Shown here one piece after another: positions 19,063 through 36,155 of a stretch of DNA of 64,000 nt (the first letter of the stretch is position 1; each line of letters opens with the position of its first letter). Below the pieces are notes generated by a model. That model searched no databases and was not told the origin of the DNA. It saw nothing but the letters and a program-made list of their open reading frames with translations. The position numbers were made by a program, and so were the translations under genes. Source of the stretch: an uncultured Actinomycetes bacterium (GTDB lineage Bacteria > Actinomycetota > UBA4738 > HRBIN12); contig CAWBVL010000007.1 of NCBI GenBank assembly GCA_963792215.1, positions 855,710 through 919,709 on the forward strand, read 5' to 3'.

Positions 19063-20178
19063 ATGGCAGCCGTCCTCGACGACGTCGCGGGTCAGGAGGA
19101 CGCGGTCGCATTCCTGCGGCGCGCGGCCGAGCGTCCGCATCACGCCTACGTGCTCGCCGGGCCGGAGGGCTCCGGCAAGTCGCTGGTCGCCCGGGCGTTC
19201 GTCGCCGCGCTGCTGTGCCACAACGGCGGATGCGGCGTGTGCCGCGACTGTCAACTCGCGCTCCGCGAGCATCATCCGAACGAGTTCGTCGTCGAGCCCG
19301 AGGGCCGCGACATCCACATCGACACGATCCGCGACGAGGTCTGGCACCACGCGTACCGCACCCCGCCGGAGCCGGGGCGCAAGGTCTTCATCATCCGCGA
19401 GGCGGACCGGCTCTCGCCCGCCGCGGCCGACACGCTGCTGAAGGTCCTCGAGGAGCCGCCGCTCGACACGGTGTTCCTCTTGTTGTCGGCGCGGGCCCAG
19501 GAGTTGCCCGACACGATCGCGAGCCGCTGTCACGTCGTCGTCTTCGCGGCGCTGCCCGAGTCCTTCGTGGTTCAGGAGCTCGAAGGCGAGGGCGTAGACC
19601 GGGTTCGGGCGCAGCTCGTGGCCCGGCTGTCCGGCGGCAACCTCGGACGGGCGCGCCGGATGGCGACCGACCCGGACGGCCTCGGGTTCCGAGACGTCGC
19701 TGCGGATGCGCTGGGCCGGGCGGCCCAAGGGCCGGGCGACGCGCTCGCCGCCGCCGCCGACGTGCTGGATGCAGCCGCGGCCTACAAGAAAGGACTCCGG
19801 GCGGAGCTCGACGAGGAACTGGCGCCGTTCCTCGACGAGAAGGGCCGGCCGGAAGAGGCGTACCGGGGAGCGATCCGGCGGATCGAGGTCCGGTTCGCCC
19901 GGCGCGAACGGCGAGCCGAACGCGACCAGGTCGACCGGATCCTGCTCGCGGCCTCGGCGCTGCTACGGGATCGCATCGCCGCGACGGTCCAGGCGCCGGA
20001 CGACCTGCGCCTCAACCTGGATCGCGAGGCTGTGCCCGCCGGGGAGGTCGGCGGCCTGGTCGCTTCTCTCGCCGCGGTCGAAGGCGCCCGGGCCGACCTG
20101 GCAGACGATGTGAACCGCAACGCGCGGCTCGTTGTCGAGCAAGCGTTCTTGGTCGTGGCCGGCGCGTCGGCAGGTTAG
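19063..20178 (+). CDS. holB: DNA polymerase III delta-prime subunit
   Basis: 'HAYVLAGPEGSGKSLVARAFVAALLC…CGVCRDC', 'KVFIIREADRLSPAAADTLLKVLEEPP'. Confidence 0.85.
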   Translation: MAAVLDDVAGQEDAVAFLRRAAERPHHAYVLAGPEGSGKSLVARAFVAALLCHNGGCGVCRDCQLALREHHPNEFVVEPEGRDIHIDTIRDEVWHHAYRTPPEPGRKVFIIREADRLSPAAADTLLKVLEEPPLDTVFLLLSARAQELPDTIASRCHVVVFAALPESFVVQELEGEGVDRVRAQLVARLSGGNLGRARRMATDPDGLGFRDVAADALGRAAQGPGDALAAAADVLDAAAAYKKGLRAELDEELAPFLDEKGRPEEAYRGAIRRIEVRFARRERRAERDQVDRILLAASALLRDRIAATVQAPDDLRLNLDREAVPAGEVGGLVASLAAVEGARADLADDVNRNARLVVEQAFLVVAGASAG

Positions 20179-20232
20179 GTCTTTCGGCCCAGCCCTTCGG
20201 CTGTTCGCATCGGCCGGACGCGGCGGTATCGT

Positions 20233-21789
20233 GTGCGACGTCTGTGTTTCGGGGGGGCGCGCGTTTCCGTGTTCGATAGGTTCACGCTCGACGAAGTGAG
20301 CGCCAAGATCTGGTGGCCGCTCGCCATGGTGGCGCTGGTCGCATTGGTGCTGACCGTTCCGGCGGCGAACCATGCCGCCGATCGGGCTCGGCGCGAGAGC
20401 GCGGCGAGGGCGATCGTCATCAGTACCCAGCGGATCGAGCCGCTCACCGCCAACGGCGCGTCCGTGGACGAGATGCATACGGCGCTCGCCGGGATCAAAG
20501 CTGCGAATCCGAGCTACGACGCGATCCGCTTGTGGAACACCGAGAACAAGCTGCTCATCGCCTCGTCGATCACGAACGACCCGTTGGGCGACGGCACCGC
20601 CGGCGTGTACGACACCGACATCGACGAGGCGGTCTCGAGTACCTACCGGATGGATGTCACCAACCGGGAGCCGACAGGCGAGCAGGGACCGACGACGGTG
20701 CACACCTTCGTCCGGGTCGACGGCCCGACCGGCAGCCCTGAGGTGGCGGAGTTCGAGGCAAGCGACGCAGCCCTGCTGGCGCAGGTCCACCACGACTGGA
20801 ACGGGTATCGGATCGTCGGGGCCCTCGCCTTCCTGCTCCTGTTCTTGCTCGCGCTGATGTCGATGCGGGAGCCCGTCGCGGACATCGGCGTGGGCGTGCC
20901 GTTCTATCCCGCGTCGCTGCCGCCGAACCTCGCGATCGTCGACGCCGAGCGCGCGATCGTGATCGAGCACGAGGACGACCACGTCCGACAACGCGTCGAA
21001 AGCCTGCAACAGCGATTGGATGAGAGCGAGCGGCAACGCCTGAAGGCCGAGGCGCGGCTGCAGCAGGCGCTCACGACATTGGGCACGGGCGGACGCAACG
21101 TGCCCGGTCTGCCGCCCGAACCGCCGACGCCGACGCTGCCGCCATCGCGTCAGGCAGCGGGTCGCCAGCAAAAGCCTGAGCCGGCCGAGCCCGTTAGCCG
21201 GCCAGCCGCCACGGCCGCGCCGGCGCCTGCGTTCGCCGAGCTCGCAGCAGCAGCATCCGCAGCAGCAGCCGCCGCATCGACGCCCAAGCACGCGTCGAAG
21301 AAGCGAACCTCGCGCCGCAGTACCCAGAAGCCGGCCGCCGAGCGCACGCCCGCGCCGCGCCGATCCCGCGCGGAGGAGCCCACCGAGGTGCCCGCAACCC
21401 CGCCCGCGGCGCCCGAACGTGTGACGGTGTCCGCGGAAGACGTCACCGTGACCGCGCAGCCGGCGGCCAAGCCCGCCGTCGAGAGGGCGGAGCCAACGCA
21501 GACCCGGCCCGAGGTCGTGGTCATCCCCGCTGAGAAGCCAACGCCCGTCGGCGCGTCGAACGCATCCGCGCCGGCTTCTTCCAAGGCGCCCGCGAAGACC
21601 CCCGACGAAGACTCGAACTCAGATGTTCTGCACCGGCTCGTCCCTGAGGACGATGCACAGGTCGAGCCACTCGATGACCCAGGCGATCTCCGGTCCCGGC
21701 TGGCCCGAACAGCCGCGCTGAAGAAGCCGGGCTCGAAAGAGCGCCAGGACCAGCGAGAAGGGCTGCAGCACCGGTCATCCGAACAGTAG
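20233..21789 (+). CDS. Hypothetical bitopic membrane protein (two TM helices flanking a ~190-aa extracytoplasmic domain, coiled coil, Pro/Ala/Thr-rich tail)
   Basis: TM1 'IWWPLAMVALVALVLTV', TM2 'IVGALAFLLLFLLALM', coiled coil 'RVESLQQRLDESERQRLKAEARLQQAL'. High-GC3 codon usage throughout. No recognisable catalytic domain. Confidence 0.5.
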   Translation: MRRLCFGGARVSVFDRFTLDEVSAKIWWPLAMVALVALVLTVPAANHAADRARRESAARAIVISTQRIEPLTANGASVDEMHTALAGIKAANPSYDAIRLWNTENKLLIASSITNDPLGDGTAGVYDTDIDEAVSSTYRMDVTNREPTGEQGPTTVHTFVRVDGPTGSPEVAEFEASDAALLAQVHHDWNGYRIVGALAFLLLFLLALMSMREPVADIGVGVPFYPASLPPNLAIVDAERAIVIEHEDDHVRQRVESLQQRLDESERQRLKAEARLQQALTTLGTGGRNVPGLPPEPPTPTLPPSRQAAGRQQKPEPAEPVSRPAATAAPAPAFAELAAAASAAAAAASTPKHASKKRTSRRSTQKPAAERTPAPRRSRAEEPTEVPATPPAAPERVTVSAEDVTVTAQPAAKPAVERAEPTQTRPEVVVIPAEKPTPVGASNASAPASSKAPAKTPDEDSNSDVLHRLVPEDDAQVEPLDDPGDLRSRLARTAALKKPGSKERQDQREGLQHRSSEQ

Positions 21790-21849
21790 TGCCTGCACCA
21801 CTGTCGGCCGGGGTCGCGTCTGGCAGCCTGGGCTGCAAGGAACCCTGCG

Positions 21850-22218
21850 ATGACCGTCCGCGTGTTGATCGTCGATGACCAGGAGCCGTTCCGGCAGGCC
21901 GCCCGCATGGTGGTCGAGTTGACGGACGGCTTCGAAGTCGTCGGCGAGGCCGAGACCGGCGAGGACTCGGTGACGATGGCGCAGGACCTGCAGCCCGACC
22001 TCGTGCTGATGGACGTGAACCTCCCGGGCATCAACGGGCTCGATGCGACGCGGCAGATCCTGGGCTCGTCGGACACGGTCGTGGTGCTGCTGCTGTCGAC
22101 CTACGAGGAAGCCGAGTACGCGCCGCGCGCCGCCGAGTGCGGCGCCTCCGCCTACATCCCCAAGTCGTCGTTCGGGCCGGACAGGCTCGAGGCCGCCTGG
22201 GAGACCGCCTCCGCCTGA
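21850..22218 (+). CDS. Stand-alone response-regulator receiver domain protein (NarL-like REC, no output domain)
   Basis: 'VRVLIVDDQEPFRQAARMVVE…DLVLMDVNLPGINGLDATRQIL…VVVLLLSTYEEAE'; the product ends after the receiver at 122 aa. Confidence 0.75.
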   Translation: MTVRVLIVDDQEPFRQAARMVVELTDGFEVVGEAETGEDSVTMAQDLQPDLVLMDVNLPGINGLDATRQILGSSDTVVVLLLSTYEEAEYAPRAAECGASAYIPKSSFGPDRLEAAWETASA

Positions 22219-24275
22219 TCGGACGCAGCGGGAACCGTGCCGATGACGGTGGTTCCTGCTCCGATGGCCGACTCGATCAGCAACGAACCACCGACCGCCT
22301 CGAGACGGTCGGCCATGCCTTGCAGTCCGGTCCCCCCGGCCACCGCGTCGGGGTCGAAGCCGCGGCCGTCGTCACGAACCATGAACCGCAACAGGCCGTC
22401 GGTCTGTTCGACGGATACGGACGCCGTCGAGGCTGAGGCGTACTTCGCGATGTTGTTCATCGCCTCGAGGGCGCAGAAGTAGACGGTGGATTCGATGTCG
22501 CGTGGGTAGCGACCGATCGACGCCGCGTCGACGCGGACCGGTGTGATCGCCTTCTGCGCCTGCGCCTCCAGCGCCGCTCGAAGCCCTTGATCGGCGAGCA
22601 GCGGCGGGTAGATCCCGCGTGCGAGGTTCCGGAGGTCGTCGAGCGCCGCGTTGGCGTCGTCTTGGAGCGCGGCGATCGCGTCGTGCGCCCGGACGGGGTC
22701 GCGCTCGATCATCGCGTCGGCCAGGCGCAGCTTCACGGCGAGCGCGACCAACTGCTGCTGGACGCCGTCGTGGATGTTGCGTTCCAGGCGCCGCCGCCCT
22801 TCATCCTGCGCCGCCACGAGCCGTTGCCGGGACGCGCGCAGCTCCTCGATCAGACGGACGTTCCGCAGCGCGAGGCCCGCCTGGTCGGCGAGGTCGCGGA
22901 TCAGCCGCTGGCGTCCGGGCCCGATCGGATCGTTGGCCGGCATCGTCACAGCGAGCGCCCCGAGCAGTTCGCCCCGGTCACGGACCGGTTCCGCCCAATC
23001 GGCCGGAAGCATCGGCAGCTCGTCGCCCTCGAGCGCCATCGCGTCGCCGATCGGACCGTCGCTCGGCCACGCGCCCGCGGGGCGGATCTCGCGCCCGACG
23101 CGGAGCCACACGACGGCGCTCGACGCACCCGTCGCGGTCGCGAGCAGTTGTGCCGTCCGGCCCACGACGTCGTCGGTCGCATACGTCTCGGACATGCGAC
23201 GCCCGAACGTCGTCAGCACCTCGTACGGCGTCGCGCGGCCGCCGTAGACGATCCGGTCCGCGATGCGTCCTGCGAGGCGGAGCGCCGGCCAGAACGCGAT
23301 GCCGATCGCCGCCGCCGCGATGACGGCGGCGCGCTGGCTCCGTCCGAACAGACCGCCGACGACGACCGCCGCCGCGACGAACGTGATCAGGAGGAGCCCG
23401 GCGACCGTCACATACAGCACCGTCTTCTTCACGACGAGGTCGAGGTCGTACAGGCGGTACTTCAGGAGCGCGATCGCGATGGAGCCGGGGATACCCACCG
23501 ACAGGCAGAGGAAGAACAGGACGAAGGCCAGGTCGTTCACCGGGCGGTTCTGGCCCGGTTGCAGGCCGATGCTCGTGATCAACACGAGGATCAGGAACAC
23601 GCCGGCGAGCGCGGCGGAGACCGAGATCCACCGGACCTGTTGCCGTTCCTCCTCGCCGGCCCGCCGATATCGGACCACAAGGGCGGCGACCGCCGCGATC
23701 GACTCGGCGGCGAGGAGGAGCCCGAAGATCCACGCGCTGGCGTTGAGGGACGACCGTAGTGCCTCGATGGCGGTGGGGTTCGGCACAGAGACGCCGTGCT
23801 TCAGCTCGATCGGAACCGGACGGAACATCGCGCCGAGGACGAGGCACACGAGCGTTGCCGCGGTCGCCCACACCAGCCAGCGCCACCGTTCCGACGGCGG
23901 ACGTCCCGTGGGGAAGAGCACGAGTACGATCGGGATCAGTCCGGCCATCACGAAGGTCCAGTTGTTGATCCACGCGGCCCAGTCTCCCGCGGGCAAAGAA
24001 CCAGGGTTCGTGACGAGGGAGTACGTCGCGTACTCCGCGGTGGCGCCGCCGAGCAGCAACCCGACCCCGACGAGCAGGAACAGCCAGCCGATCGGGTTGT
24101 GCGGGACGCGACTCGCCAGGATCGCGCCGGTGATCGCGTAGGTGACGATCGACAAGATGATCAGCAACGTGAACGGGTCGCCGGAGAAGGTGCCGTTCAG
24201 CGTGCCGAGCCAGAGCGCTTCGACGACGAGCGCGGCACCGACGGCGATCGCGCTCCAGACGCCGATCCGTCTCAC
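22152..24275 (-). CDS. Membrane sensor histidine kinase, HisKA_3 (NarL-partner) type, paralog K1
   Basis: N-terminal multi-TM domain with conserved 'NPIGW', 'FPTGRPPSERWRW', 'KYRLYDLDLVVKKT'; linker 'RIVYGGRATPYEVL'; H-box 'RRRLERNIHDGVQQQLVAL'; HATPase 'DDGRGFD…GTGLQGMADRL'. The 3' end overlaps the convergent receiver gene by 67 nt. Confidence 0.8.
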   Translation of the reverse strand: MRRIGVWSAIAVGAALVVEALWLGTLNGTFSGDPFTLLIILSIVTYAITGAILASRVPHNPIGWLFLLVGVGLLLGGATAEYATYSLVTNPGSLPAGDWAAWINNWTFVMAGLIPIVLVLFPTGRPPSERWRWLVWATAATLVCLVLGAMFRPVPIELKHGVSVPNPTAIEALRSSLNASAWIFGLLLAAESIAAVAALVVRYRRAGEEERQQVRWISVSAALAGVFLILVLITSIGLQPGQNRPVNDLAFVLFFLCLSVGIPGSIAIALLKYRLYDLDLVVKKTVLYVTVAGLLLITFVAAAVVVGGLFGRSQRAAVIAAAAIGIAFWPALRLAGRIADRIVYGGRATPYEVLTTFGRRMSETYATDDVVGRTAQLLATATGASSAVVWLRVGREIRPAGAWPSDGPIGDAMALEGDELPMLPADWAEPVRDRGELLGALAVTMPANDPIGPGRQRLIRDLADQAGLALRNVRLIEELRASRQRLVAAQDEGRRRLERNIHDGVQQQLVALAVKLRLADAMIERDPVRAHDAIAALQDDANAALDDLRNLARGIYPPLLADQGLRAALEAQAQKAITPVRVDAASIGRYPRDIESTVYFCALEAMNNIAKYASASTASVSVEQTDGLLRFMVRDDGRGFDPDAVAGGTGLQGMADRLEAVGGSLLIESAIGAGTTVIGTVPAASDQAEAVSQAASSLSGPNDDLGM

Positions 24276-26353
24276 GACGACGATCCTCCGGCGGCCATGA
24301 CGGGCACGGTACCCATCACGACGGTGCCGTTGCCCGGCTCACTCTTCACGGTGATCGAGCCGCCGACCGCATCGAGACGGTCGGCCATGCCCTGCAACCC
24401 GGTTCCGTAGGACGTCGTTGCCGTGTTGAAGCCGGCGCCGTCGTCGTGGACGGCGAAGCGAAGATGTTCGTCGTCTTGCGCGAGCTCGATCGTTGCCCGA
24501 TCCGCCTGCGCGTACTTCGCGACGTTGTTGAGCGCCTCGAGCGAGCAGAAGTAGATCGCCGACTCCACCGCCTGGTCGTACCGCCCGACCCCATCGGACG
24601 TCACGGTCGTGGGCACCGCCGCCTTACGCGCCTGCGCCTCGAGCGCCGCAGCCAGGCCTTGGTCGGCGAGCAGCGGGGGGTAGATCCCGCGCGCGAGGTC
24701 GCGGAGGTCCTCCAGTGCTTCGGTGGCGCGGCCCTGGAGCTGTTCGGCCATCGCCGGCACCTTGGACGGATCGCGATCGGCGGTCCTGCTCAGCAGTCCA
24801 AGCTGCACGTTGAGCGCGACCAGCTGCTGCTGCACGCCGTCATGCAGGTTGCGCTCGATCTTCCGCCGTTCATCGTCTTGTGCGGCAACCAGGCGTTGTC
24901 GCGACGCCCGGAGCTCCTCGATCAGCCGCACGTTCCGCAGGACGAGGCCGGCCTGTGCCGCGAGGTCGCCCATCAGCTTCTCCTTGGCGGGGTCGATCGG
25001 GTCTGAGGGTGGCATCGTGACGGAGAGCTCGCCGAGCTCCACACCCTGGTGCACGACGGCGACCGCGTGGTCCCGTCCGGGCGGTTCATCCGCCGGGAAC
25101 GTCGCGATCGGATGGAGGTCTGCGTCGACGCGGAGCCATACGGTCGCGGAAGACGCGCCGGTGCCTTTCGCCAGCACCTGCGCCATCCGAGGCAGGACGT
25201 CGTCGGCGTCGTACGCGTCGCCGACCCGTGAGGAGAAGTCCGCGAGGACCTCGTACGGCGTCGCGCGCTTCCCGTAGACGAGCCGGTCGGCGACCTTTCG
25301 TGCCCGTTCCCGCGCCGGTTGGAACGCGATGGCCAAGACCGCGGCGGCGACGAACGAGAGCGTCGCGTCGTGGTGTCCGACGAGCGCGCCGATGCCGCTG
25401 ACGACGGCCGCGTACACGACGGTGATGAACACCGCCAAGAGACCGAACACCACCGTCTTGCGGATCACGAGATCGAGGTCGTACAGGCGATACTTCACGA
25501 TCGCGATACCGCACGCGATGGGGATGCCACCCAACAGCGTGACGAACCAGACGGTGAAGACGATCGAGCCGACGAGCTGCCCGAGCGGTGTCTGGTCGCC
25601 GAGGAGCGCCGTGGTCACGATGCCGATCACGAGCTCGGCGGTGAACAGCATGCCGACGAACGCCAGCCATCGGATCTGCTGGCGGACCTCGCCCGTCGCG
25701 CCTCGGTAGCGGACGACGATGGCCGCGCACGCGGGGAACACCATGAGGAACGTGATGATGCCCGCGACCTCGGTCAGGACGTGGAGCAGACCGGCGAGCG
25801 CATCGACCCCGAGCGGGTTCATCACGATGACGTCGGTCAGATCGGCGAACGCCCCGGTCATCGGTCCGGGCGTCAGCGCGAAGGCGATCACGGTGATCGC
25901 CGGGGCGATGATCGTGACCCAGAGCACCGGTCGCCACCGAGGTGACGGCACCCGCCCGTCGGGGAAGAGCAGGAAGACGGGGATGAAGCTCGTGAGCACC
26001 AACACGATGAGCCACCGGTCGAACCACGCCGCGGCGTATCCGAACGGCAGCGAGCCGGGGTCCTTCTTCAGCGCCTGTGTCGCGTAGTCGCCGCAGAACA
26101 AGGCGAACGCTCCGACGAGCGGGATCGCCAGCAGGATCCATCCGATCGCGTTGCGTGCGTGCCGTATCACGATCGACCACCCGACGAACAGCAGCATCGC
26201 GGGGAAGAGGATCACGCCCCCGGCGTAGATCGTGTTGATCAACCACCCGGCTTGATCGGTCAGGCTTCCCGTCGAGAGTGCGAGCGTGAACCGGACGACG
26301 AGCAAGACCGTCGTCGCCACGACCATCGCCGTCGCGATCCTGCGGGCATTCAT
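24272..26353 (-). CDS. Membrane sensor histidine kinase, HisKA_3 type, paralog K2
   Basis: 'RNAIGW', 'FPDGRVPSPRWRP', 'KYRLYDLDLVIRKT', 'RLVYGKRATPYEVL', 'RRKIERNLHDGVQQQLVAL'. ATGA overlap with K1. Confidence 0.8.
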   Translation of the reverse strand: MNARRIATAMVVATTVLLVVRFTLALSTGSLTDQAGWLINTIYAGGVILFPAMLLFVGWSIVIRHARNAIGWILLAIPLVGAFALFCGDYATQALKKDPGSLPFGYAAAWFDRWLIVLVLTSFIPVFLLFPDGRVPSPRWRPVLWVTIIAPAITVIAFALTPGPMTGAFADLTDVIVMNPLGVDALAGLLHVLTEVAGIITFLMVFPACAAIVVRYRGATGEVRQQIRWLAFVGMLFTAELVIGIVTTALLGDQTPLGQLVGSIVFTVWFVTLLGGIPIACGIAIVKYRLYDLDLVIRKTVVFGLLAVFITVVYAAVVSGIGALVGHHDATLSFVAAAVLAIAFQPARERARKVADRLVYGKRATPYEVLADFSSRVGDAYDADDVLPRMAQVLAKGTGASSATVWLRVDADLHPIATFPADEPPGRDHAVAVVHQGVELGELSVTMPPSDPIDPAKEKLMGDLAAQAGLVLRNVRLIEELRASRQRLVAAQDDERRKIERNLHDGVQQQLVALNVQLGLLSRTADRDPSKVPAMAEQLQGRATEALEDLRDLARGIYPPLLADQGLAAALEAQARKAAVPTTVTSDGVGRYDQAVESAIYFCSLEALNNVAKYAQADRATIELAQDDEHLRFAVHDDGAGFNTATTSYGTGLQGMADRLDAVGGSITVKSEPGNGTVVMGTVPVMAAGGSSS

Positions 26354-28338
26354 CGGGCTGATCCCGCCATGCTCCGATCCGATGCCGGAACCGCGACCAT
26401 CACGGTGGTGCCGGATGCCCCGCTCGTGACGGCGAGCGAACCTTCGAGGGCGTCCACGCGATCCTGGATGATCTGCAGCCCCATGCCGCGCGGCGTCGTC
26501 CTCGCATCGAACCCCGGTCCTTCGTCGGTGATCTCGAAGGTCAAGACATCGCCGTCGAGCGACAGTCGCACCGTGCTCGGTGCGTTCGCGGCGTGACGCA
26601 GCACGTTCTGGATCGCCTGCAGACAGCAGAAGTAGACGCAGGCCTCGACGTCCGCATCGAACCTGCGGTTGGCGACCGAGGGATCGGCTTCGACCGTCGT
26701 CTGGGCGCCGACTTTGCGGATGTGTGCTTGCAGAGCGGGAACGATCCCTTGATCGGCCAGTAGCGGAGGGAACACCCCGCGCGCGAGGTCGCGAAGTCCT
26801 TCCAGGGTGTCGTTGGCGCGCTCGATCAGCGGGTCGAGCTCAGCCGGCTCGTTGACCGCGCGCACCGCGCGGCCGATCTCCAGGAGCTGCCGTTCGGGTC
26901 CCTCCTGGATGTCGCGCTGGAGCCCGCGACGCTGCGCGTCGCGGGCGGTCACCAAGCGCTCACGCGAGACCCGAAGGGCCGCCGCCTGCACGTCGAGCTC
27001 CCGCAACCGGACCCCGAGCTCTTCCGTGAGTCGGACGTTGTGCACGGCAAGGCCTGCCTGAGCGCCGAGGTCTTCGAGCAGCGCGCGTTCTGCCGGCGTG
27101 AGCGGGTCGTTCGCCGGCTTCGTCACGGTCAAGGTGGCGACGGGCTCGCCTTGGTGCACGATCGTCGTGGTCCACGGCTCCGCCGTTCGCCCGCCGGCGC
27201 TCGGTCCTTGCCAGCGCTCCACACGCTCGCCGCCGTCCGGAAGCGCGACGCGGATCGTCACTTCGGCGGCGCCCACGCCGGTGCCGGCCGCCTCGGCCAT
27301 CTGCGGAAGCACCTGTTCGGTCGAGACCGCGTCGGCGACCCGCTCTGAGAAGCCGGCCATCACCTCGTACGGGGTCGCGCGCTCGCCGAACACCAGCCGG
27401 TTGGCGAGCCGCCGTGCCCACACGCGCGCCGGCTGGAACAGCACGGCCGCGATCACGGTGGCAAGCAGGGACGAGGCGCCGGTGAGCGAACCGATCGCCG
27501 CGACCACTGCCACGTAGACCACCGTGATGAACGCCGCGAGCATTGCGAACACGAGCGTCTTCGACAAGACGAGGTCGATGTCGTACAGGCGGTAGCGCAG
27601 GATCGCGATGCCGGCCGCGATCGGGATCAGCGGGACCAAGAGCGCGAACGCCAGGTCGGGCCTCGGGAGTGCGAACACGCCGACCGCGACCCCCACGGCT
27701 GCGACCGCGCTCGCGGCGGTGAACCACTTCATCTGTGCGCGTTCGAGGCCGGCAGAGCGCCGGAACCGCACGACGAGCGAGACGGCGGACGCAAGGAAGA
27801 TCACCGCGTTCAGCAGACCGCCGAACGAGTTCAGCTCATCCGCGAACGATGGCGAGACGAGCTGCATCGGATGCGTCACCCCGGGGAAGTTCTGCGTGAA
27901 GTCCGACGTCACGCCGATGGCGGGCGCGATGAGGACGAACGCGATCGATCCGAGGGTGATCCACACGAGCGCGCGCCAGCGCGGCGTCAGCGGCGAGCCG
28001 GTCGGGAACAGTTGCAGGATCAGGTACACCGCTCCCGAGAGACCGATCGCCGATTGGAAGACCACTCCAACCCACCCCACGCCGGGCAGGTTCCGGGCGG
28101 TCGCTTGATGCGCGTACCCCAGGAGCGCGATGTCGACGGCGACCGACGCGCCGACGAACATCAGCAGCGGGCCGATCGCACGCCCGGCGCGCCGATACCA
28201 CAGCAGCGCGCCGACCGCGGTGGACGCGGCGACGAGCGGGATCCACATCAGGTCGCTCGGCACGTCTTCCAACATGGCACCAGCGACGAGTACCGCCAGC
28301 GACACGACCGGGATCGCCACGGCGAACGCGCGTCTCAT
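26350..28338 (-). CDS. Membrane sensor histidine kinase, HisKA_3 type, paralog K3
   Basis: 'FPTGSPLTPRWRA', 'RYRLYDIDLVLSKT', 'RLVFGERATPYEVM'. H-box diverged to 'RRGLQRDIQEGPERQLLEI' (Gln at the usual His position). ATGA overlap with K2. Confidence 0.75.
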   Translation of the reverse strand: MRRAFAVAIPVVSLAVLVAGAMLEDVPSDLMWIPLVAASTAVGALLWYRRAGRAIGPLLMFVGASVAVDIALLGYAHQATARNLPGVGWVGVVFQSAIGLSGAVYLILQLFPTGSPLTPRWRALVWITLGSIAFVLIAPAIGVTSDFTQNFPGVTHPMQLVSPSFADELNSFGGLLNAVIFLASAVSLVVRFRRSAGLERAQMKWFTAASAVAAVGVAVGVFALPRPDLAFALLVPLIPIAAGIAILRYRLYDIDLVLSKTLVFAMLAAFITVVYVAVVAAIGSLTGASSLLATVIAAVLFQPARVWARRLANRLVFGERATPYEVMAGFSERVADAVSTEQVLPQMAEAAGTGVGAAEVTIRVALPDGGERVERWQGPSAGGRTAEPWTTTIVHQGEPVATLTVTKPANDPLTPAERALLEDLGAQAGLAVHNVRLTEELGVRLRELDVQAAALRVSRERLVTARDAQRRGLQRDIQEGPERQLLEIGRAVRAVNEPAELDPLIERANDTLEGLRDLARGVFPPLLADQGIVPALQAHIRKVGAQTTVEADPSVANRRFDADVEACVYFCCLQAIQNVLRHAANAPSTVRLSLDGDVLTFEITDEGPGFDARTTPRGMGLQIIQDRVDALEGSLAVTSGASGTTVMVAVPASDRSMAGSAR

Positions 28339-30434
28339 GCGGTGCGCACCTCCGAGATGGGCACGCGCCCGCGCACGATCGTGCCCTTCCCGCGAGAGGA
28401 CTCGATCGTCGCGTCCCCGCCGAACACGGCGAGCCGGTCACGGATGCCGGCGAGGCCACTGCCTCCTCCGGTCGCGGCGGGATCGAACCCGACGCCGTCG
28501 TCGCGCACCGAGAAGCGCAGCGCTCCGTCGTCCGCCGCGATCACGATGGTGATCTCGTTCGCGTGCGCGTACTTGGCGGCGTTCTGCAACGCCTCGAGCG
28601 CGGCGAAGTACACGGCCGCTTCGATCTCGATGGGATAGCGGCCCGTCCCGTCCGCCTCCATCCGCACGGGCAGCCCGGAGCGCACGTACTGAGCCGCCAG
28701 CGCGGGGGCGATCCCTTGTTCCTCGAGCAACGGCGGGTAGATCCCGAGCGCAAGGGCCCGCAGCGTGTCGAGCGCGGCGTCGATCTCACCGCCGATCTCT
28801 TCGAGCATCGCGCGGCCGCGAGCAGGATCGGCGGCGATCGCCGTCTTGGCGAGCCGGAGCTTCACCGCAAGGGCGACCAGGTGCTGTTGCGCGCCGTCGT
28901 GGATGTTGCGCTCCAGCCGGCGGCGCTCCTCGTCCTGGGCGGTGACGATCCGCTGACGGGACGCGCGAAGCTCCGCGGCCTGGACCCCGATCTGATCGAG
29001 CCGCGCCTCCAGGTCGGCGGTCAGACCGGCGTTCGCGAGGATCAAGCCGGCCTGGTCGGCGAGTCGGTCGACCAACTCGGCCTCGCCGGGCGTGAGCGGT
29101 TCGCTCGCGCGCTTGTGGACCGCGATCGCGCCGAGCAGATCGCCGTGGTGGCGGACCGCGGCGACGCGATCGGCCTCGATCGGCATGACGTCATCGGCGA
29201 CCGGCAGGGATCGCCGTTCGTCCATATCGGGCCACGAGGCCGCCAACCGAAGCTCGTCGCCCACCCGGAGCCACACCTCCGCGCGGACGGCCGACGTTCC
29301 TTCCGCGATCACGCGCGCCACCCGCGGCAAGACGTCGTCACTCGCGTACGTTTCGCCGACGCGGTCGCCGAACCGAGCGAGCACCTCGTACGGCGTCGCA
29401 CGCGCACCGTACACGAGCCGGTTCGCCCAGCGGTTCGCACGGTCGCGCGCCGGCTGGAACGCGATCGCGACGACCGCGGTCGCGGCGATCCGGAGCGCCG
29501 GCGAATCGGCGAACGAACCGAGCCCGACGACGATCGCGACGTAGATCAGGCCGATGAACGCCGCGAGCACGCCGACCACGACGGTCTTGCGGATCACCAC
29601 GTCGATGTCGAAGAGGCGGTACTGCAGTATCGCGATGCCGATCGCGATCGGGATCAGCATCAACACGAACCCCTGGATGAAGTCCGCGATCCCGCCGGTG
29701 CCGTGGTTCAGCGGGAGCATGAACCACGCGAGGGCGACCGCGCCGGCGAACATCAACCACCGGATCTGCTCGCGTTCGACGCCTCGGGACCGGCGGTACC
29801 GGACCACGAGCGCCGCGACGCACGCCCCGACGGCGAGGAGCACGAAGAAGCTGACGAGGACGCGAGCGGCGTCGAACACCGGCGCGAACCGGTGCCACGT
29901 GTACGGGTTGATCGCCGGGTGGTTGTTGCCGTCGGTGTAGTCGTTCTGTTCGAACGCGAACGACATCGACCACAGCACCATGACGACCGCGACGCCCCAC
30001 GCCACGGGTCGCCACCGCCGGCTCGGGAGCCGTCCGTCGGGGAACAGCAGGAGTGGATACGTGAGGAGCAGGGTGAATATCGGGACCCACGCCCAGTTCC
30101 CGAGCCAGTTGAGGAACACCGCCCCCGGCGCGCCGGGGTGGTCGATCGTCGCCCACTGCACGTAGGTCCCGGCGAAGGAGAAGACCGCCGAGACGCCGAC
30201 CCACACCGCGAGGAAGATCCACCCGATCGGGTTCCTCGGTTCGCGCAACGCGATCGCGAGACCGACCACGCCATACGCGGTGAAGGCGAGACCCTCGGAG
30301 ATCGTCGACAACGGCGTCGGCAGATGATGGGCGAGCCCGAACGCGAGCGACCCGACGAACACCACGGTCGATGCCGTCCACAGCGACCAGGCCAATGCAC
30401 GCCGGGACGGCGCCGGGTGCGCGGCACCCGGCAT
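28335..30434 (-). CDS. Membrane sensor histidine kinase, HisKA_3 type, paralog K4
   Basis: 'RNPIGW', 'FPDGRLPSRRWRP', 'QYRLFDIDVVIRKT', 'RLVYGARATPYEVL', 'RRRLERNIHDGAQQHLVAL'. Start set at the Met of 'MPGAAHPAPSRRALAW' by paralog alignment; the ORF could extend to 30530. Confidence 0.75.
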   Translation of the reverse strand: MPGAAHPAPSRRALAWSLWTASTVVFVGSLAFGLAHHLPTPLSTISEGLAFTAYGVVGLAIALREPRNPIGWIFLAVWVGVSAVFSFAGTYVQWATIDHPGAPGAVFLNWLGNWAWVPIFTLLLTYPLLLFPDGRLPSRRWRPVAWGVAVVMVLWSMSFAFEQNDYTDGNNHPAINPYTWHRFAPVFDAARVLVSFFVLLAVGACVAALVVRYRRSRGVEREQIRWLMFAGAVALAWFMLPLNHGTGGIADFIQGFVLMLIPIAIGIAILQYRLFDIDVVIRKTVVVGVLAAFIGLIYVAIVVGLGSFADSPALRIAATAVVAIAFQPARDRANRWANRLVYGARATPYEVLARFGDRVGETYASDDVLPRVARVIAEGTSAVRAEVWLRVGDELRLAASWPDMDERRSLPVADDVMPIEADRVAAVRHHGDLLGAIAVHKRASEPLTPGEAELVDRLADQAGLILANAGLTADLEARLDQIGVQAAELRASRQRIVTAQDEERRRLERNIHDGAQQHLVALAVKLRLAKTAIAADPARGRAMLEEIGGEIDAALDTLRALALGIYPPLLEEQGIAPALAAQYVRSGLPVRMEADGTGRYPIEIEAAVYFAALEALQNAAKYAHANEITIVIAADDGALRFSVRDDGVGFDPAATGGGSGLAGIRDRLAVFGGDATIESSRGKGTIVRGRVPISEVRTA

Positions 30435-30614
30435 CGTGGTCGCGACGTGTTGCTGCATACGGGTCGATGCTCGCAGCGCGGGGCTCCGCCACCAAGGAGG
30501 GGGTCGCCACCGTTGCCGGCGTGCTGGCACTACCCGCCAACCGTGGTGTCCGCCGGGTCGTTCCCGCAGGTCACGCGGCCTACCGTTCAGTCAGTGATTG
30601 GAGGCGAACGAGAG

Positions 30615-31022
30615 ATGGCAACGATCGTGGTAGGAACCGACACCTCGGCGGCAGCCGATCTGGCGGTCGACGAGGCCGGGCGGCTCGCTCGGGCCAACGG
30701 CGCGGAGCTCGTGGTGCTCCTCGTGCGGCCCGACGGTGATCTTCGCGCGGTGGTCGACCCAGCCAAGGCAGCCGACCCGGAACGACACCTGACCCAACTG
30801 ATCCAACGGTTCCCCGATGTGTCCGTGAAGGCGCGAGTGGAGCACGGCGACGCGGCCGAGCGGATCTGTGAGGTCGCCGGCGAGCTCAAAGCCGAGACCA
30901 TCGTGGTCGGCAACCGCGGCACGAAGGGCTCGTGGTGGAAGGTGAAGGACAGCGTCCCGAACCTCGTGCTCCGGCACGCGCCGTGCAGCGTCTACATCGT
31001 CGACACCCGGCGGGCTCAGTGA
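30615..31022 (+). CDS. Universal stress protein (UspA family)
   Basis: 'MATIVVGTDTSAAADLAVDEAGRLA…ELVVLLV…ETIVVGNRGTKG…VPNLVLRHAPCSVYIV'. GGAGG RBS 12 nt upstream. Embedded at the 3' end of a long antisense ORF. Confidence 0.75.
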   Translation: MATIVVGTDTSAAADLAVDEAGRLARANGAELVVLLVRPDGDLRAVVDPAKAADPERHLTQLIQRFPDVSVKARVEHGDAAERICEVAGELKAETIVVGNRGTKGSWWKVKDSVPNLVLRHAPCSVYIVDTRRAQ

Positions 31023-31047
31023 GCCCAAGGAGGCAAGACCGGTGACG

Positions 31048-31731
31048 CTACGCGAGCTCGGTCTCCCGCAGGAACGCGAGCACGGCCATCACGCGACGGT
31101 GCACGTCGGGTTCTTCGGTGAGACCGAGCTTGTGGAACATCGAGTTGATGTGCTTCTCGACCGCGCGGTCGGTGAGGAACAAGGCCTTCGCGATCGACGC
31201 GTTGTTCATCCCTTGCGCCATGAGCGACAGCACCTCGCGTTCGCGGTCGGTGAGCTGCGCAAGCGGGGAGTGGGCGAGCCGGTCCTTCGCGGCGACGAGC
31301 GACTCGACGACCTTGGGATCGAGCACGCTGCCACCGCGGGAAACCTCGTAGAGGGCGCGGACGACTTCGTCGAGGTCGGCGACCCGCTCTTTCAACAGGT
31401 ACCCGAGCCCGGCGGCGCCGTCCTTCAGCAGGTCGTAGACATAGGCCTCGTCGGCGTATTGGGACAGCACGACGACGCCGGTGTCGGGGTGCTCGGCGCG
31501 GATCTGCCGCGCGGCGCGGATCCCTTCGTCCGTGCCGGTGGGCGGCATGCGGATGTCGGTGAGGACGGCGTCCGGGGTCTGGTCGGCGACCGCGGCGAGC
31601 AGCTCGTCGTAGGAGGCGGCGGTGCCCACGATGGCGACGTCCTCGGCCTCGTGCAGCAGCGCCGCGGTGCCCTCCCGCACAAGGTAGTTATCCTCGGCGA
31701 ACACGATGCGCAGCACGGCCGCATCGTACAC
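31048..31731 (-). CDS. NarL/FixJ-family response regulator (REC plus LuxR-type HTH)
   Basis: 'LRIVFAEDNYLVREG…DAVLTDIRMPP…VVVLSQYADEAYV', HTH 'LTDREREVLSLMAQGMNNASIAKALFLTDRAVEKHINSMFHKLG'. Confidence 0.85.
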   Translation of the reverse strand: MYDAAVLRIVFAEDNYLVREGTAALLHEAEDVAIVGTAASYDELLAAVADQTPDAVLTDIRMPPTGTDEGIRAARQIRAEHPDTGVVVLSQYADEAYVYDLLKDGAAGLGYLLKERVADLDEVVRALYEVSRGGSVLDPKVVESLVAAKDRLAHSPLAQLTDREREVLSLMAQGMNNASIAKALFLTDRAVEKHINSMFHKLGLTEEPDVHRRVMAVLAFLRETELA

Positions 31732-31748
31732 GGGGAGCTACGGGCGAC

Positions 31749-33029
31749 ATGACGATCCGAGTGGTGCTCGGCGAGGACAATGTGCTGGTCCGCGAGGGTG
31801 TCCGCGCACTGCTCGACTCCTACGAGGATGTCGAGGTCGTCGGCGTCGCGTCCGACGCGCCGACCTTGATGGCGGCCGCGCATGAGCATGTTCCGGACGT
31901 CGTCGTCACCGATATCAAGATGCCGCCGTCGTTCCAGCTCGAGGGGATCGACTGCGCGCACGCGATCCGCGAGCAGCACCCGGACACCGGTGTGGTCGTC
32001 CTGTCGGCGCACGACGACGCCGAGTACGCCGTCGCGCTGCTGGGCGAAGGGCACAGCGGCCTTGCCTACCTCTTGAAGGACCGGATCGCGCAGGGCGACG
32101 AGCTCGTCCGCGCGATCCACGAGGTGCATGAGGGCGGCAGCGTCGTCGATCCGACGATCGCCGAGCGGCTCACCGGGAGCCAGCACGCCGACGACCAAGA
32201 CCGCAAGGTGCTGGACATGATGGCCCAGGGCCTCGGCTATCAGGAGATGGCGGCCGCGCTCGGCACGACGCAGGAGGCGGTCGACCGCCGCGTCACGGAT
32301 CTGTTCCGTCGGATGGCCGGTGGCAGCGAGGCCGGCAACGTGGACGATCTGAAGCGGCTGCACGCCGCCGTGGTGCAAAGCTCAGCGTCGTTCGAGACGC
32401 TTCGCTCGTACGTGCCGCAACAGGTGGTCGACGGACTCGCGGCAGACGCGAGCCTCGCCGAGCAGCGCGAGGTTGAGGTGACGGTGTTGTTCAGCGACAT
32501 CCGCGGCTTCTCGACGTTGTCGGAACGGCTCGCGGCGCGCGAGATCGCCGATGTGATCGGGCGGCATCTGCAGGCGATGGCCGAGGTCGTCGCCTCCCAC
32601 GGCGGCACGATCGACAAGTTCCAGGGCGACGCGGTGATGGCGGTGTTCGGCGCGCCGGTGCCGATGGACGATCACGCGCGCTGCGCGGTCGCGTGCGCGC
32701 TCGAGATGCAGTCGCGTCAGCGCGAGCTCAACGCCGAGGGTTGGGGGATCGAGAAGGTCGAGCGCCTCGACGTCGGGATCGGCCTGAACACCGGCATCGT
32801 GATGGCGGGCGCGATCGGCGGTGGCGGCCGGCTCGAGTACACGGTGATCGGCGACGCGGTCAACGTCGCGCAGCGCTTGCAGTCCGAGGCCGCCGGCGGA
32901 GAGATCGTCGCCGCAGCGAGCACGGTCCAGGCATGCGCCGACATCGAGGTCGAGTCGATCGGGGCCCGATCGGTGAAAGGCCGGGAAGAGCCCGTCGAGG
33001 TCTTCCGGGTCCTCATCGCGGACCGATGA
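31749..33029 (+). CDS. Response regulator with REC plus LuxR-type HTH fused to a C-terminal class III nucleotidyl cyclase (CHD) domain
   Basis: REC 'IRVVLGEDNVLVREG…DVVVTDIKMPP…VVVLSAHDD'; HTH 'DRKVLDMMAQGLGYQEMAAALGTTQEAVDRRV'; cyclase 'VTVLFSDIRGFSTLSE', 'IDKFQGDAVMAVFGAP', 'IGLNTGIVMAGAIGG', 'YTVIGDAVNVAQRLQS'. Confidence 0.8.
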   Translation: MTIRVVLGEDNVLVREGVRALLDSYEDVEVVGVASDAPTLMAAAHEHVPDVVVTDIKMPPSFQLEGIDCAHAIREQHPDTGVVVLSAHDDAEYAVALLGEGHSGLAYLLKDRIAQGDELVRAIHEVHEGGSVVDPTIAERLTGSQHADDQDRKVLDMMAQGLGYQEMAAALGTTQEAVDRRVTDLFRRMAGGSEAGNVDDLKRLHAAVVQSSASFETLRSYVPQQVVDGLAADASLAEQREVEVTVLFSDIRGFSTLSERLAAREIADVIGRHLQAMAEVVASHGGTIDKFQGDAVMAVFGAPVPMDDHARCAVACALEMQSRQRELNAEGWGIEKVERLDVGIGLNTGIVMAGAIGGGGRLEYTVIGDAVNVAQRLQSEAAGGEIVAAASTVQACADIEVESIGARSVKGREEPVEVFRVLIADR

Positions 33030-35113
33030 CCATCTCCGACCGAGGCCTCCGCGTCCTGACGTGGGTGGTCCTCGGCGTGATGTTGCTGACCGCGGTCGTG
33101 AGCCTGCTGATGGACAGCGTCAGCGGCTACAAGACCGACTGGGGCTTCGCGGTGATCATCCTTGCGTTCCCGTTCACCGGGTTCGTCGTGCTCCAGAAGC
33201 GACCGCGGAACACCCTCGGCTGGCTGATGCTCGGCATGGGCTTCATCGTGGCGATGCCCTTCCAGGACTACGCCGAGTACGCGCTCGTGAAGGGCCTGCC
33301 CGGTGCGGGCGTCGGCCTGGCGATGTCCGAGTGGTCCTGGGTCCCGTTCATCGGGATCTCCGGGTTCCTGTTGATGTTGTTCCCCGACGGGCATCTGCCG
33401 ACGCCGCGATGGCGGTGGTTCGCCTGGACGTGCGGGATCGGTCTCGTGTCGCTCGCGGCTGTGATCGCGTTCGCGCCGGGGAACTTCGCCGACCTGGGCC
33501 ATCCGGAGATCACGAACCCGCTGGGGTTCCATCCGCTCGATGTGCTCGGCGGCTGGATCTACGTGGTGACGATCTTCGCGCCGGCCGCGGTCGTCGGAGG
33601 AGCGGTCGCGATCATCCGGCGTCTCCGGCGTTCGACCGACCAGATCGAACGCCAGCAGCTGAAGTGGCTCGCGTGGGCGGCGGGCATCATCGCGGCGACG
33701 TACGTGTTCGCGTTCATCCCGGAGCTGGCCCTGGGAACGAGCACGTCCAACTGGAACGACTGGATCGCGCGGATCGCGGTGGGGTCATTCATCCTGATCC
33801 CGATCACGATCGGCATCGCGATCTTGCGCTATCGCCTGTACGACATCGACCTGGTGATCCGTAAGACCGTGGTCTTCGCGGTGCTCGCGGGGTTCATCGC
33901 GGTCGTGTATGTCGCGATCGTCGCCGGGATCAGCGTGGTCGTCGGGAACCTGTCCAGCACCGTCGCGTCGGCCATCGCCGCGGCGGTGGTCGCGCTCGCG
34001 ATCCAACCGGTGCGCCGGTGGGGCCAGCGCACCGCCGACCGCATCGTGTACGGCAAGCGCGCGACGCCGTACGAGGTGCTCACCGAGTTCGGCGAGAACC
34101 TCGCCGAGACCTACGGAGCCGACGACGTGCTCGCGCGCCTCGCCCGCGTGCTCGGTGAAGGCGTCGGCGCGCAGCGTGCGCGTGTCTGGCTCGGCGCAGA
34201 CGGGACGCGGCGCGTCGTCGCGAGTTGGCCTGACGGTGCCCCCGCATCCGGCGGCGACGATCTCGTCGAACCCGTTCGGCACCAGGGCCAGGTGCTCGGG
34301 GCTCTGTCCGTCGCGATGCCGCCGAACGATCCGATCGATGAGCCGCGGACCAAGCTGGTCGACGGGCTCGCTGCGCAGGCCGGCCTGGTGCTCCGCAATG
34401 TCGGCCTCCTCGAGGATCTGCGTGAGTCGCGGCGACGCTTGGTCGCCGCACAAGACCTCGAGCGGCGCAAGCTCGAGCGGAACATCCACGACGGCGCGCA
34501 GCAGCAGCTCGTCGCGCTGACCGTGAAGCTTCGATTGGCGCGTCAGGTCCTCGTGAAGGACCCGTCGCGCGTCGACGGCATGCTCGACGAGCTGGCCGGC
34601 GAGACGCAGCAGGCGCTCGAGGATCTCCGCGACCTGGCGCGCGGCATCTATCCACCGTTGCTGGCGGACCAGGGGCTCGGGGCGGCGCTGGAGGCCCAGG
34701 CGCGCCGGTCGGCGGTGCCGGTGACCGTCGAGTCCGACGCGATCGGCCGGTATGCACCGGAGGTGGAGGCAGCTGTCTACTTCTCGTGCCTCGAGGCCTT
34801 GCAGAACATCGCGAAGTACGCCGGCGCCACCGCCGCGACGATCCAGCTCACGGGTGCGCCGGGCCGCCTCGAGTTCCGGATCAACGACGACGGGGTCGGG
34901 TTCGACGCCGGCGCGACCTCGTACGGAACTGGGCTGCAGGGGATCGCGGACCGCCTGGCGGCGCTCGGCGGGGCGCTCGCCGTCGCCTCGACGCCCGGCA
35001 GCGGGACCGCGATCACCGGGTCCTTGCCCGCCCAGGAGGCCGATGCGAAGGTGAGCCCCGACGGTGCGCCGCCCGCCGTACCGGCGGCGCCGATGGGCGC
35101 TGCGCGCCCGTGA
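33026..35113 (+). CDS. Membrane sensor histidine kinase, HisKA_3 type, paralog K5
   Basis: ATGA overlap with the cyclase-RR stop. 'RNTLGW', 'FPDGHLPTPRWRW', 'RYRLYDIDLVIRKT', 'RIVYGKRATPYEVL', 'RRKLERNIHDGAQQQLVAL', 'DDGVGFD…GTGLQGIADRL'. Confidence 0.8.
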   Translation: MTISDRGLRVLTWVVLGVMLLTAVVSLLMDSVSGYKTDWGFAVIILAFPFTGFVVLQKRPRNTLGWLMLGMGFIVAMPFQDYAEYALVKGLPGAGVGLAMSEWSWVPFIGISGFLLMLFPDGHLPTPRWRWFAWTCGIGLVSLAAVIAFAPGNFADLGHPEITNPLGFHPLDVLGGWIYVVTIFAPAAVVGGAVAIIRRLRRSTDQIERQQLKWLAWAAGIIAATYVFAFIPELALGTSTSNWNDWIARIAVGSFILIPITIGIAILRYRLYDIDLVIRKTVVFAVLAGFIAVVYVAIVAGISVVVGNLSSTVASAIAAAVVALAIQPVRRWGQRTADRIVYGKRATPYEVLTEFGENLAETYGADDVLARLARVLGEGVGAQRARVWLGADGTRRVVASWPDGAPASGGDDLVEPVRHQGQVLGALSVAMPPNDPIDEPRTKLVDGLAAQAGLVLRNVGLLEDLRESRRRLVAAQDLERRKLERNIHDGAQQQLVALTVKLRLARQVLVKDPSRVDGMLDELAGETQQALEDLRDLARGIYPPLLADQGLGAALEAQARRSAVPVTVESDAIGRYAPEVEAAVYFSCLEALQNIAKYAGATAATIQLTGAPGRLEFRINDDGVGFDAGATSYGTGLQGIADRLAALGGALAVASTPGSGTAITGSLPAQEADAKVSPDGAPPAVPAAPMGAARP

Positions 35114-35127
35114 CGAGAGGGGATCCG

Positions 35128-35928: not shown

Positions 35929-36155
35929 GCGCGCGCCCGGGCGCCGCCCGTCCCAAAGGCATACGCCGTCTCGAGCGGTGGTTCGTCGGCGTGATGATGG
36001 GCATCATCGCGTTCGCGCTCGAGAAGATCGTGCTGCGGTCCGTGAAGAAGAAGCATCCGGAGACCGGGCCAGAGGCGTCGACGCTCACGTCCAAGGGTGG
36101 CGACGTCGACCTGGAGGACCTGCGCCTCGGGAAAGGCTTCGGGAAGAGCTCCTAG
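35925..36155 (+). CDS. Small hypothetical single-TM protein (76 aa)
   Basis: ATGA overlap with the preceding gene. One TM ('WFVGVMMGIIAFAL'). GC3-rich codons. No homology recognised. Confidence 0.4.
   Translation: MSARPGAARPKGIRRLERWFVGVMMGIIAFALEKIVLRSVKKKHPETGPEASTLTSKGGDVDLEDLRLGKGFGKSS

Follow-up and report, generated by a model that had tools for sequence, protein, structure and literature searches.

A stretch of 64,000 nucleotides from an uncultured Actinomycetes bacterium (contig CAWBVL010000007.1, positions 855,710 to 919,709; hereafter the window) carries an array of four paralogous membrane sensor kinase genes, which we name K4, K3, K2 and K1 in their order of transcription on the minus strand (Table 1). 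The G+C content of the window is ~70%, and a third-position G+C content (GC3) of 0.87-0.90 marks the four consecutive open reading frames (ORFs) as coding. The genes lie head-to-tail, each joined to the next by a 4-nucleotide start/stop overlap, GGAGG-like sequences are found upstream of two of the three junctions, and the four genes form one operon. An earlier interpretation made from the letters of this DNA (the sequence-only reading) had described four tandem, translationally coupled paralogues, and the ORFs and overlaps bear this out. It had also given ATGA as the overlap at every junction, which is correct for K4-K3 (28335-28338) and K3-K2 (26350-26353), whereas K2-K1 reads GTGA (24272-24275). 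The start of K4 is uncertain: its ORF spans 28335-30530 and could begin at ATG 30434 or at ATG 30458, the latter agreeing with the 707-residue call of the orthologue in L001 (loci of related genomes are given L numbers throughout). Consensus scans for promoters and terminators returned zero sites and are uninformative for high-GC Actinomycetota, and an Rfam scan of positions 20000-36000 found no RNA family.

Table 1. Coordinates of the kinase array and of the flanking signalling genes in the window.
Feature	Coordinates	Strand	Description
K4	28335..30434	-	Active sensor kinase, array gene 1; H-box HDGAQQH; GAF-to-His spacer 51 residues
K3	26350..28338	-	Pseudo-histidine kinase: membrane domain, GAF, 51-residue spacer, degenerate DHp QRDIQEGPERQ, intact N/G1/G2
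K3 phospho-acceptor codon	26905..26907	-	CAG (Gln)
K2	24272..26353	-	Active accessory kinase; short spacer, 37 residues; H-box HDGVQQQ
K1	22152..24275	-	Active short-spacer accessory kinase; GTG start overlaps K2 stop
REC-only	21850..22218	+	Single-domain receiver; convergent with K1; position conserved across loci
USP	30615..31022	+	Universal stress protein (Pfam 6e-23); divergent from K4, convergent with NarL-type gene; position conserved
NarL/LuxR-type regulator	31048..31731	-	REC + GerE; same strand as array, 590-614 bp upstream of K4
REC-cyclase	31749..33029	+	REC + degenerate helix-turn-helix (HTH) + class III nucleotidyl cyclase
K5	33026..35113	+	Fifth family member; short-spacer; H-box HDGAQQQ

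The kinases have 9-11 N-terminal hydrophobic segments, and AlphaFold2 (AF2) also places helices there, in keeping with the membrane domain of about nine helices proposed before. Pfam searches gave HisKA_3 (PF07730; cut-off 24) scores of 51.6 bits for K4, 59.4 for K2, 49.7 for K1 and 50.1 for K5, a family member encoded outside the array. HATPase_c (PF02518) was above threshold in all five kinases, K3 included, and was the only one of these domains reached in K3, which had no HisKA_3 match at E<=0.01. At the motif level, the H-box His and the DxxxQ motif (HDG[AV]QQ[QH]) are present in K1, K2, K4 and K5, and the N-box Asn, DxGxG and GxG in all five. The common HisKA_3 and HATPase architecture ascribed to the array by the sequence-only reading therefore holds for K4, K2 and K1 but not for K3, and the shared motifs that it listed are visible in the paralogue alignment, from which K3 deviates. 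Pfam matches to GAF were weak and mostly below threshold, with none in K2 and only K1 just at the cut-off. The membrane region is at best a distant relative of HisKA_7TM (PF16927), for which K4 scored 19.1 bits against a cut-off of 28.6 and the other window kinases gave no match; a few K3 orthologues carry a precomputed match to this family. NCBIfam held no equivalog for any of the kinases, matching only their C-terminal transmitters at scores far below the cut-offs.

The deviation of K3 centres on the phospho-acceptor site. Its H-box reads LQRDIQEGPE, with a CAG codon replacing the His codon, and the motif continues as Q-E-G-P-E-R, so that the His has become Gln and the Gln at +5 has become Arg. 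The His-to-Gln change, which the sequence-only reading had proposed to confirm, is genuine: Gln recurs in independent assemblies, being found also in L001, L006 and L008, and the position is variable across the whole orthologue clade. Among 110 K3 orthologues the column contains His in 39, Gln in 29, Arg in 28, Glu in 7, Ser in 5, and Tyr and Asn in one each, a distribution that under Fitch parsimony takes no fewer than 16 independent changes to explain. Variation is absent or nearly so in the flanking columns of the same set (R475, G480 and L485 in all 110, D476 in 107). The phosphatase Gln of DxxxQ is Arg in 75 and His in 26 orthologues (101 of the 110). Looking within the K3 H-box for another conserved His yielded one at +5 in only 26 of the 110 orthologues, and none in the K3 of the window.

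The remainder of the protein is maintained. Throughout the actinomycetal K3 clade the N-box Asn and the G1 (DxGxG) and G2 (GxG) boxes do not vary, and the N-box carries two clade-specific changes, Glu to Gln at -4 and Lys to Arg at +3. Judged from GHKL enzymes, such changes may permit ATP binding yet impair catalysis. K3 is under purifying selection at the same level as its active neighbours, the ratio of nonsynonymous to synonymous substitution (dN/dS) being 0.18-0.19 against the L001 and L008 orthologues and 0.16, 0.18, 0.17 and 0.24 for the active paralogues K4, K5, K1 and K2, respectively. Domain by domain, K3-type proteins are conserved at least as well as the active kinases, the dimerization and histidine phosphotransfer (DHp) domain excepted. 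In DHp helix alpha-1 of K3 the hydrophobic core positions are kept, whereas those on the surface differ among members of the clade. Modelled with AF2 (pLDDT 76), K3 shows a membrane bundle, a GAF domain, a long signalling helix, a two-helix DHp and an alpha/beta catalytic and ATP-binding (CA) domain; the best matches of the model in the PDB are the DesK and VraS transmitters, and the PDB fold search found no solved structure that resembles the membrane domain. K3 thus shows two hallmarks of a pseudo-histidine kinase, namely retention of the fold and loss of the acceptor residue while the gene is under selection.

We examined the conservation of the locus in 59 species-representative genomes in which it is also found, including contigs of 0.3-1.5 Mb. 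Full-length K3 orthologues number more than 110, are 47-95% identical, and come without exception from metagenome-assembled genomes (MAGs) of uncultured Actinomycetota or from soil metagenomes. In the ~27 loci with enough flanking sequence the frame is constant, with topA, tmk-MFS, holB, a gene for an unknown membrane protein and, convergent with the array, the REC-only gene on one side; on the other side the array is divergent from the USP gene, which converges with the NarL-type regulator gene, and this in turn is divergent from the genes for the REC-cyclase and a K5-type kinase. Across the related loci, 89 of 96 adjacent kinase-kinase junctions have the 4-nucleotide overlap. The number of kinases per array ranges from 2 to at least 8. 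The longest, with at least 8 family kinases in a row, is in L021 (JAHEXX010000031, 118-16969), and L009, L014 and L036 have six consecutive family kinases each; every one of these four long arrays holds one K4-type/K3-type pair. Among the nearest relatives there are deletions: L001 is without K2, L006 is without K2 and most of K1, and L008 possesses a single third gene. K4 and K3 persist through the variation in copy number. One locus has the frame without the array: in the complete chromosome of L056 (OY969099, 1-22001), holB, an unknown gene and the genes for REC-only, USP, NarL-type regulator, REC-cyclase and a K5-type kinase are all present. Either the array arose by insertion or expansion or it was lost in L056.

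A neighbour-joining phylogeny of the family, of the kind that had been suggested for dating the duplications, separates a long-spacer super-clade comprising the K4-type and K3-type proteins from a short-spacer super-clade. K1 and K2 are old paralogues. The idea that they are recent tandem duplicates was ruled out, because other genomes have a separate positional orthologue of each.

The pairing of K4 with K3 follows a rule. In nearly all arrays among the surveyed loci, the gene immediately downstream of a K4-type gene is of the K3 type, with a 4-nucleotide overlap at 25 of 28 such junctions. The spacer from the GAF 'QAGL' motif to the His position is 51 residues in all 44 K4-type and all 36 K3-type members. 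Other family members, with the H-box HDG[AV]QQQ, have spacers of 37 (84 members), 44 (13), 51 (13) or 68 (1), those with 51 being mostly distant His-less members that the motif filter had missed. A two-heptad insert of 14 residues shared by K4 and K3 was at one point considered as evidence of heterodimerization and was dropped once the tree had been built. The adjacency of the two types spans widely differing lineages and extends to MAGs binned in other phyla. There, in MAGs binned as Dormibacterota or Chloroflexi, a fully degenerate K3-type partner stays beside a K4-type kinase; in L046, L048, L053 and L057 the N, G1 and G2 boxes are gone from the partner as well as the His. Gene order in these distant lineages can be reversed or alternating (pseudokinase, K4-type, pseudokinase, K4-type in L046). 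Mirror-tree correlation gives weak support to co-evolution of the two proteins, with r(K4,K3) = 0.79-0.84 and a partial r of 0.65-0.76, compared with 0.26-0.52 or lower for other pairs. As a separate observation, the K4-type H-box HDGAQQH (around position 28900 in the window) carries a second His at +6 without exception, a position occupied by Gln in all other kinases of the family.

Comparison of positions 26200-37000 with the close relative L006 (DATAPH010000097) revealed mosaic divergence. Segments that are 95-99% identical between the two genomes, covering REC-cyclase, NarL and USP (32800-30700) and the C-terminal part of K4 with K3 (28900-26200), alternate with the K4 membrane sensor domain (30400-28900), which is 74-88% identical, and K5 (35200-33100), which is 73-83% identical. 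The synonymous divergence (dS) is 0.06 for K3 and 0.45-0.76 for K4 and K5. This pattern suggests that recombination replaces the sensor parts allelically.

The likely outputs of the array lie on both of its sides. The sequence-only reading had found no cognate regulator in the operon and had placed the nearest candidates beyond a divergent usp gene, in the case of the NarL-type gene, and at the convergent 3' end, in that of the receiver-only gene. These positions are confirmed and no regulator gene lies within the narrow operon, but wherever a syntenic locus reaches far enough, the array is flanked by the genes for the NarL-type regulator, REC-only, USP and REC-cyclase/K5. The phospho-acceptor Asp is retained in each of the three local receivers, as are the conserved Ser and Lys. 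NarL-family receivers are the classical partners of HisKA_3 kinases, and the NarL-type regulator is most likely the output regulator of the array, from which the opposite-strand USP gene separates it. The REC-cyclase is its paralogue, with 47% identity running through REC into a degenerate LuxR-type HTH (GerE E=0.06). K5 probably controls cyclic-nucleotide synthesis, because its start overlaps the REC-cyclase stop codon (33026-33029, by coordinates). Over the alpha-1 helix of DHp (H+1 to H+20), K1, K2, K4 and K5 are 55-75% identical to one another, and K3 is 15-20% identical to any of them; divergence among the window paralogues is greatest in the sensor domains, at 29-36% identity. Similar docking helices below such different sensors make an arrangement of many inputs and few outputs plausible and suggest that K1, K2, K4 and K5 share regulator specificity.

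On balance we favour, with moderate confidence, the interpretation that the locus encodes a multi-input module in which the activity of K4 is modulated by the pseudokinase K3 and the local regulators receive the signals of the accessory kinases. Its kinases belong to an uncharacterised family with polytopic membrane, GAF, HisKA_3 and HATPase domains in uncultured soil Actinomycetota, and its constant core is the translationally coupled dyad of the active K4 and the pseudo-histidine kinase K3. Having kept its sensor domain, GAF, signalling helix, DHp core and ATP-binding pocket, K3 would still sense through the membrane domain and GAF and would probably bind ATP. It lacks both the site for canonical phosphorylation and the phosphatase Gln, would not work as a canonical phosphatase, and no longer presents the regulator-docking surface of the family. 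As a sensor of signals and possibly of ATP, K3 most likely modulates K4 via hetero-oligomerization, as the analogies with FasB/FasC, RetS/GacS and DivL/CckA suggest, there being precedents for regulation by heterodimeric or pseudo-histidine kinases (PMC12675982, PMC4211667, PMC8498467). The strict adjacency and coupling to K4-type genes and the mirror-tree correlation lend physical regulation of K4 by K3 indirect support. K2 and K1 are accessory active kinases whose sensors have diverged while their docking helices have stayed near-identical; together with the divergently encoded K5 they would add inputs onto common regulators, and K1, K2, K4 and K5 probably phosphorylate the same local receivers, namely the NarL-type regulator, the REC-cyclase and REC-only. 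The physical interaction of K4 with K3, the sharing of regulators and the direction of regulation, like the other mechanistic steps beyond sequence conservation, are parts of this proposal that we infer.

Several observations weigh against this interpretation. His is retained by 39 of the 110 K3 orthologues, which could be active. The 14-residue insert is not independent evidence of pairing, because it was inherited from the common ancestor of the K4 and K3 clades, and the mirror-tree correlation may be a product of tight linkage or of control genes that are not perfectly orthologous. As promoter and terminator signals were not called, the case for a single transcript is carried wholly by the overlaps. 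The regulators are not specific to the array, because they are present in the array-less L056. Finally, all carriers of homologues are uncultured organisms.

The main rival, which we consider unlikely, is an obligate asymmetric heterodimer in which the ATP-binding domain of K3 phosphorylates the K4 His in trans, making K3 catalytically essential. It would account for N, G1 and G2 boxes that stay invariant in ~110 actinomycetal K3 orthologues despite a variable His column, and for two adjacent, coupled genes with spacers of equal length; FasBC offers a precedent (PMC12675982), and the split HK1/HK2 of Mycobacterium tuberculosis is a proposed case. Against this, K4 has complete N, G1 and G2 boxes of its own and so needs no donor CA domain, and the two N-box changes of K3 may, by analogy, allow ATP binding and impair catalysis. 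In addition, the Dormibacterota- and Chloroflexi-binned partners that are devoid of these boxes remain paired with a K4-type kinase. A broader reading along similar lines is possible, if doubtful: K4 and K3 would form a widespread obligate heterodimeric kinase family in which K3 contributes a second sensor and ATP-binding domain without a phospho-acceptor, and accessory kinases share regulators or even exchange protomers in a combinatorial, evolvable array. Were that so, population-level swapping of sensor domains would be part of the evolvability of the array.

The other explanations depart further from a dedicated dyad. The kinases could instead be independent sensors that share an operon, each acting on a different, possibly distant regulator, with K3 having an output outside two-component signalling such as ATP-dependent scaffolding. 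The strong divergence of the sensor domains, the occurrence of the local regulators without an array in L056 and the fluid membership of the array are all compatible with this. However, near-identical docking helices of the kind found in K1, K2, K4 and K5 normally imply shared or cross-reacting partners, K4 and K3 are strictly adjacent across broad lineages, and the NarL-type regulator and REC-only genes consistently bracket the array, which leaves this explanation quite improbable. We give still less credence, to the point of thinking it very improbable, to the proposal of the sequence-only reading that four equivalent kinases feed one or two regulators in the manner of KinA-E, with K3 draining the regulator as a phosphatase-only member. 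The docking helix is indeed alike in the four His-containing kinases, a Spo0F-like REC-only gene is conserved at the 3' end and K3 retains the overall transmitter fold. Convergence of many kinases on few outputs stays plausible. Equivalence of the members does not hold, because K4 and K3 are a conserved dyad of the long-spacer super-clade whereas K2 and K1 belong to a dispensable class of variable copy number; as for a phosphorelay, no Hpt- or Spo0B-like domain was found in the neighbouring genes scanned, which were those of the locus. According to PMC3510030, the phosphatase activity of HisKA_3 proteins needs the DxxxQ Gln, and the motif was defined in NarX. A phosphatase-only K3 is unlikely because this Gln is gone in most orthologues and because the docking helix common to the other four kinases has been lost, the alpha-1 surface of K3 having diverged and become variable within its own clade. 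The last alternative, that the array is a mis-assembled repeat or that K3 reflects a sequencing error or a decaying pseudogene, has nothing in its favour beyond the a priori possibility in MAG-like sequence and is refuted by the comparative data. More than 50 MAGs and contigs from metagenomes, independent of one another, have the same organisation, with one complete chromosome in the wider set, and DNA identity between the paralogues, at only ~65-73%, is too low for collapse or expansion of repeats to be a concern. Decay does not fit an intact full-length ORF with a dN/dS of ~0.18 and 110 full-length orthologues, and a sequencing error does not fit the same Gln in three related loci.

Some further features of the surroundings were recorded. 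The 3' ends of K1 and the REC-only gene overlap by 67 nucleotides (22152-22218), as they do in L001 but not in L005. Beyond REC-only, a conserved ORF of ~500 residues (20233-21789, plus strand) separates it from holB; it had no Pfam or NCBIfam family and was found by phmmer in many, not all, syntenic loci. Beside holB, and by synteny topA, lies a gene (16992-19031, plus strand) for a membrane domain of the major facilitator superfamily (MFS) type fused to thymidylate kinase, a fusion that is kept in all syntenic loci. On the far side of the cluster, the ORF at 36152-38266 (minus strand, 704 residues) encodes, by synteny with L001 gene calls, a putative fusion of USP with an ABC1/UbiB-type kinase, and the signalling cluster would thus have a second gene with a USP domain at its border.

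Textbooks describe histidine kinases as homodimers, and to our knowledge the examples of heterodimeric or pseudokinase-regulated systems are few (FasBC, RetS/GacS, DivL) and were each found singly. Our literature searches returned no description of this kinase family, nor any of a pseudokinase within a tandem HisKA_3 array. The K3 lineage, in whose more than 100 members at least 16 losses of the His stand against a fixed ATP pocket, sensor and gene order, amounts to a natural evolutionary experiment, and the further-degenerated series in other lineages extends it as a case of evolution from kinase to regulator of a neighbour. The K4-K3 pair could thereby serve as a natural case for how dead kinases regulate live ones. 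The variable accessories and mosaic sensor domains show soil bacteria adding, dropping and swapping inputs on a fixed output module.

None of the systems with which we compared the locus unites a copy-number-variable tandem array, a conserved active/pseudo dyad and repeated His loss with retention of the ATP pocket; each shares a part of this combination. DesK, NarX and LiaS-VraS have the transmitter fold and motifs (HDxxxQ, N, G1, G2) of K1, K2, K4 and K5, but none has a membrane domain of ~9-10 helices together with GAF. In Bacillus, several kinases with different inputs, KinA to KinE, converge on the single-domain receiver Spo0F. The REC-only gene conserved beside the window array recalls this system, whereas the KinA-E genes are dispersed, their products are all active and of the HisKA family, and a Spo0B phosphotransferase is required, of which none was seen in the locus. 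An actinobacterial parallel is the atypical AbrC1/AbrC2/AbrC3 system of Streptomyces coelicolor, in which AbrC3 is presumably a NarL-type regulator. Two paralogous membrane kinases are encoded next to a single regulator, AbrC3 (PMC4428217); both autophosphorylate on the canonical His, there are only two kinases and no pseudokinase, the regulator lies within the cluster, and the N-terminal sensor differs from that of the window kinases. The window array does not share the AbrC arrangement of all-active kinases with a co-transcribed regulator, K3 being His-less and the NarL-type gene separate.

Closer likenesses to the dyad itself come from systems in which one kinase-like protein acts on another. 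RetS-GacS of Pseudomonas (PMC8498467, PMC5992135) resembles it in direct DHp-level modulation between kinases and in directing several sensors to one output, but its kinases are hybrid or unorthodox and their genes lie at separate loci, without a tandem array, and RetS retains its His. In Caulobacter, DivL is a conserved kinase-fold protein without the His, having Tyr instead, that has been repurposed to regulate the active kinase CckA (PMC4211667). DivL is a HisKA/PAS protein that is encoded apart from CckA and senses a phosphorylated receiver, whereas K3 is of HisKA_3 descent with a sensor in the membrane, its gene is translationally coupled to that of the presumed partner, and the residue at the His position varies by lineage. 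The FasB/FasC/FasA system of group A Streptococcus (PMC12675982) is alike in having two adjacent kinase-like genes in one operon, a proposed DHp-mediated heterodimer, one member that has been called a pseudokinase, and a single response regulator as output. The Fas regulator sits in the operon, the sensor architecture and the phylum differ, and extra accessory kinases are found only here. The two pseudokinases have also taken opposite courses: FasC keeps its His and its kinase domain is dispensable, whereas K3 has lost the His and kept the ATP-binding motifs.

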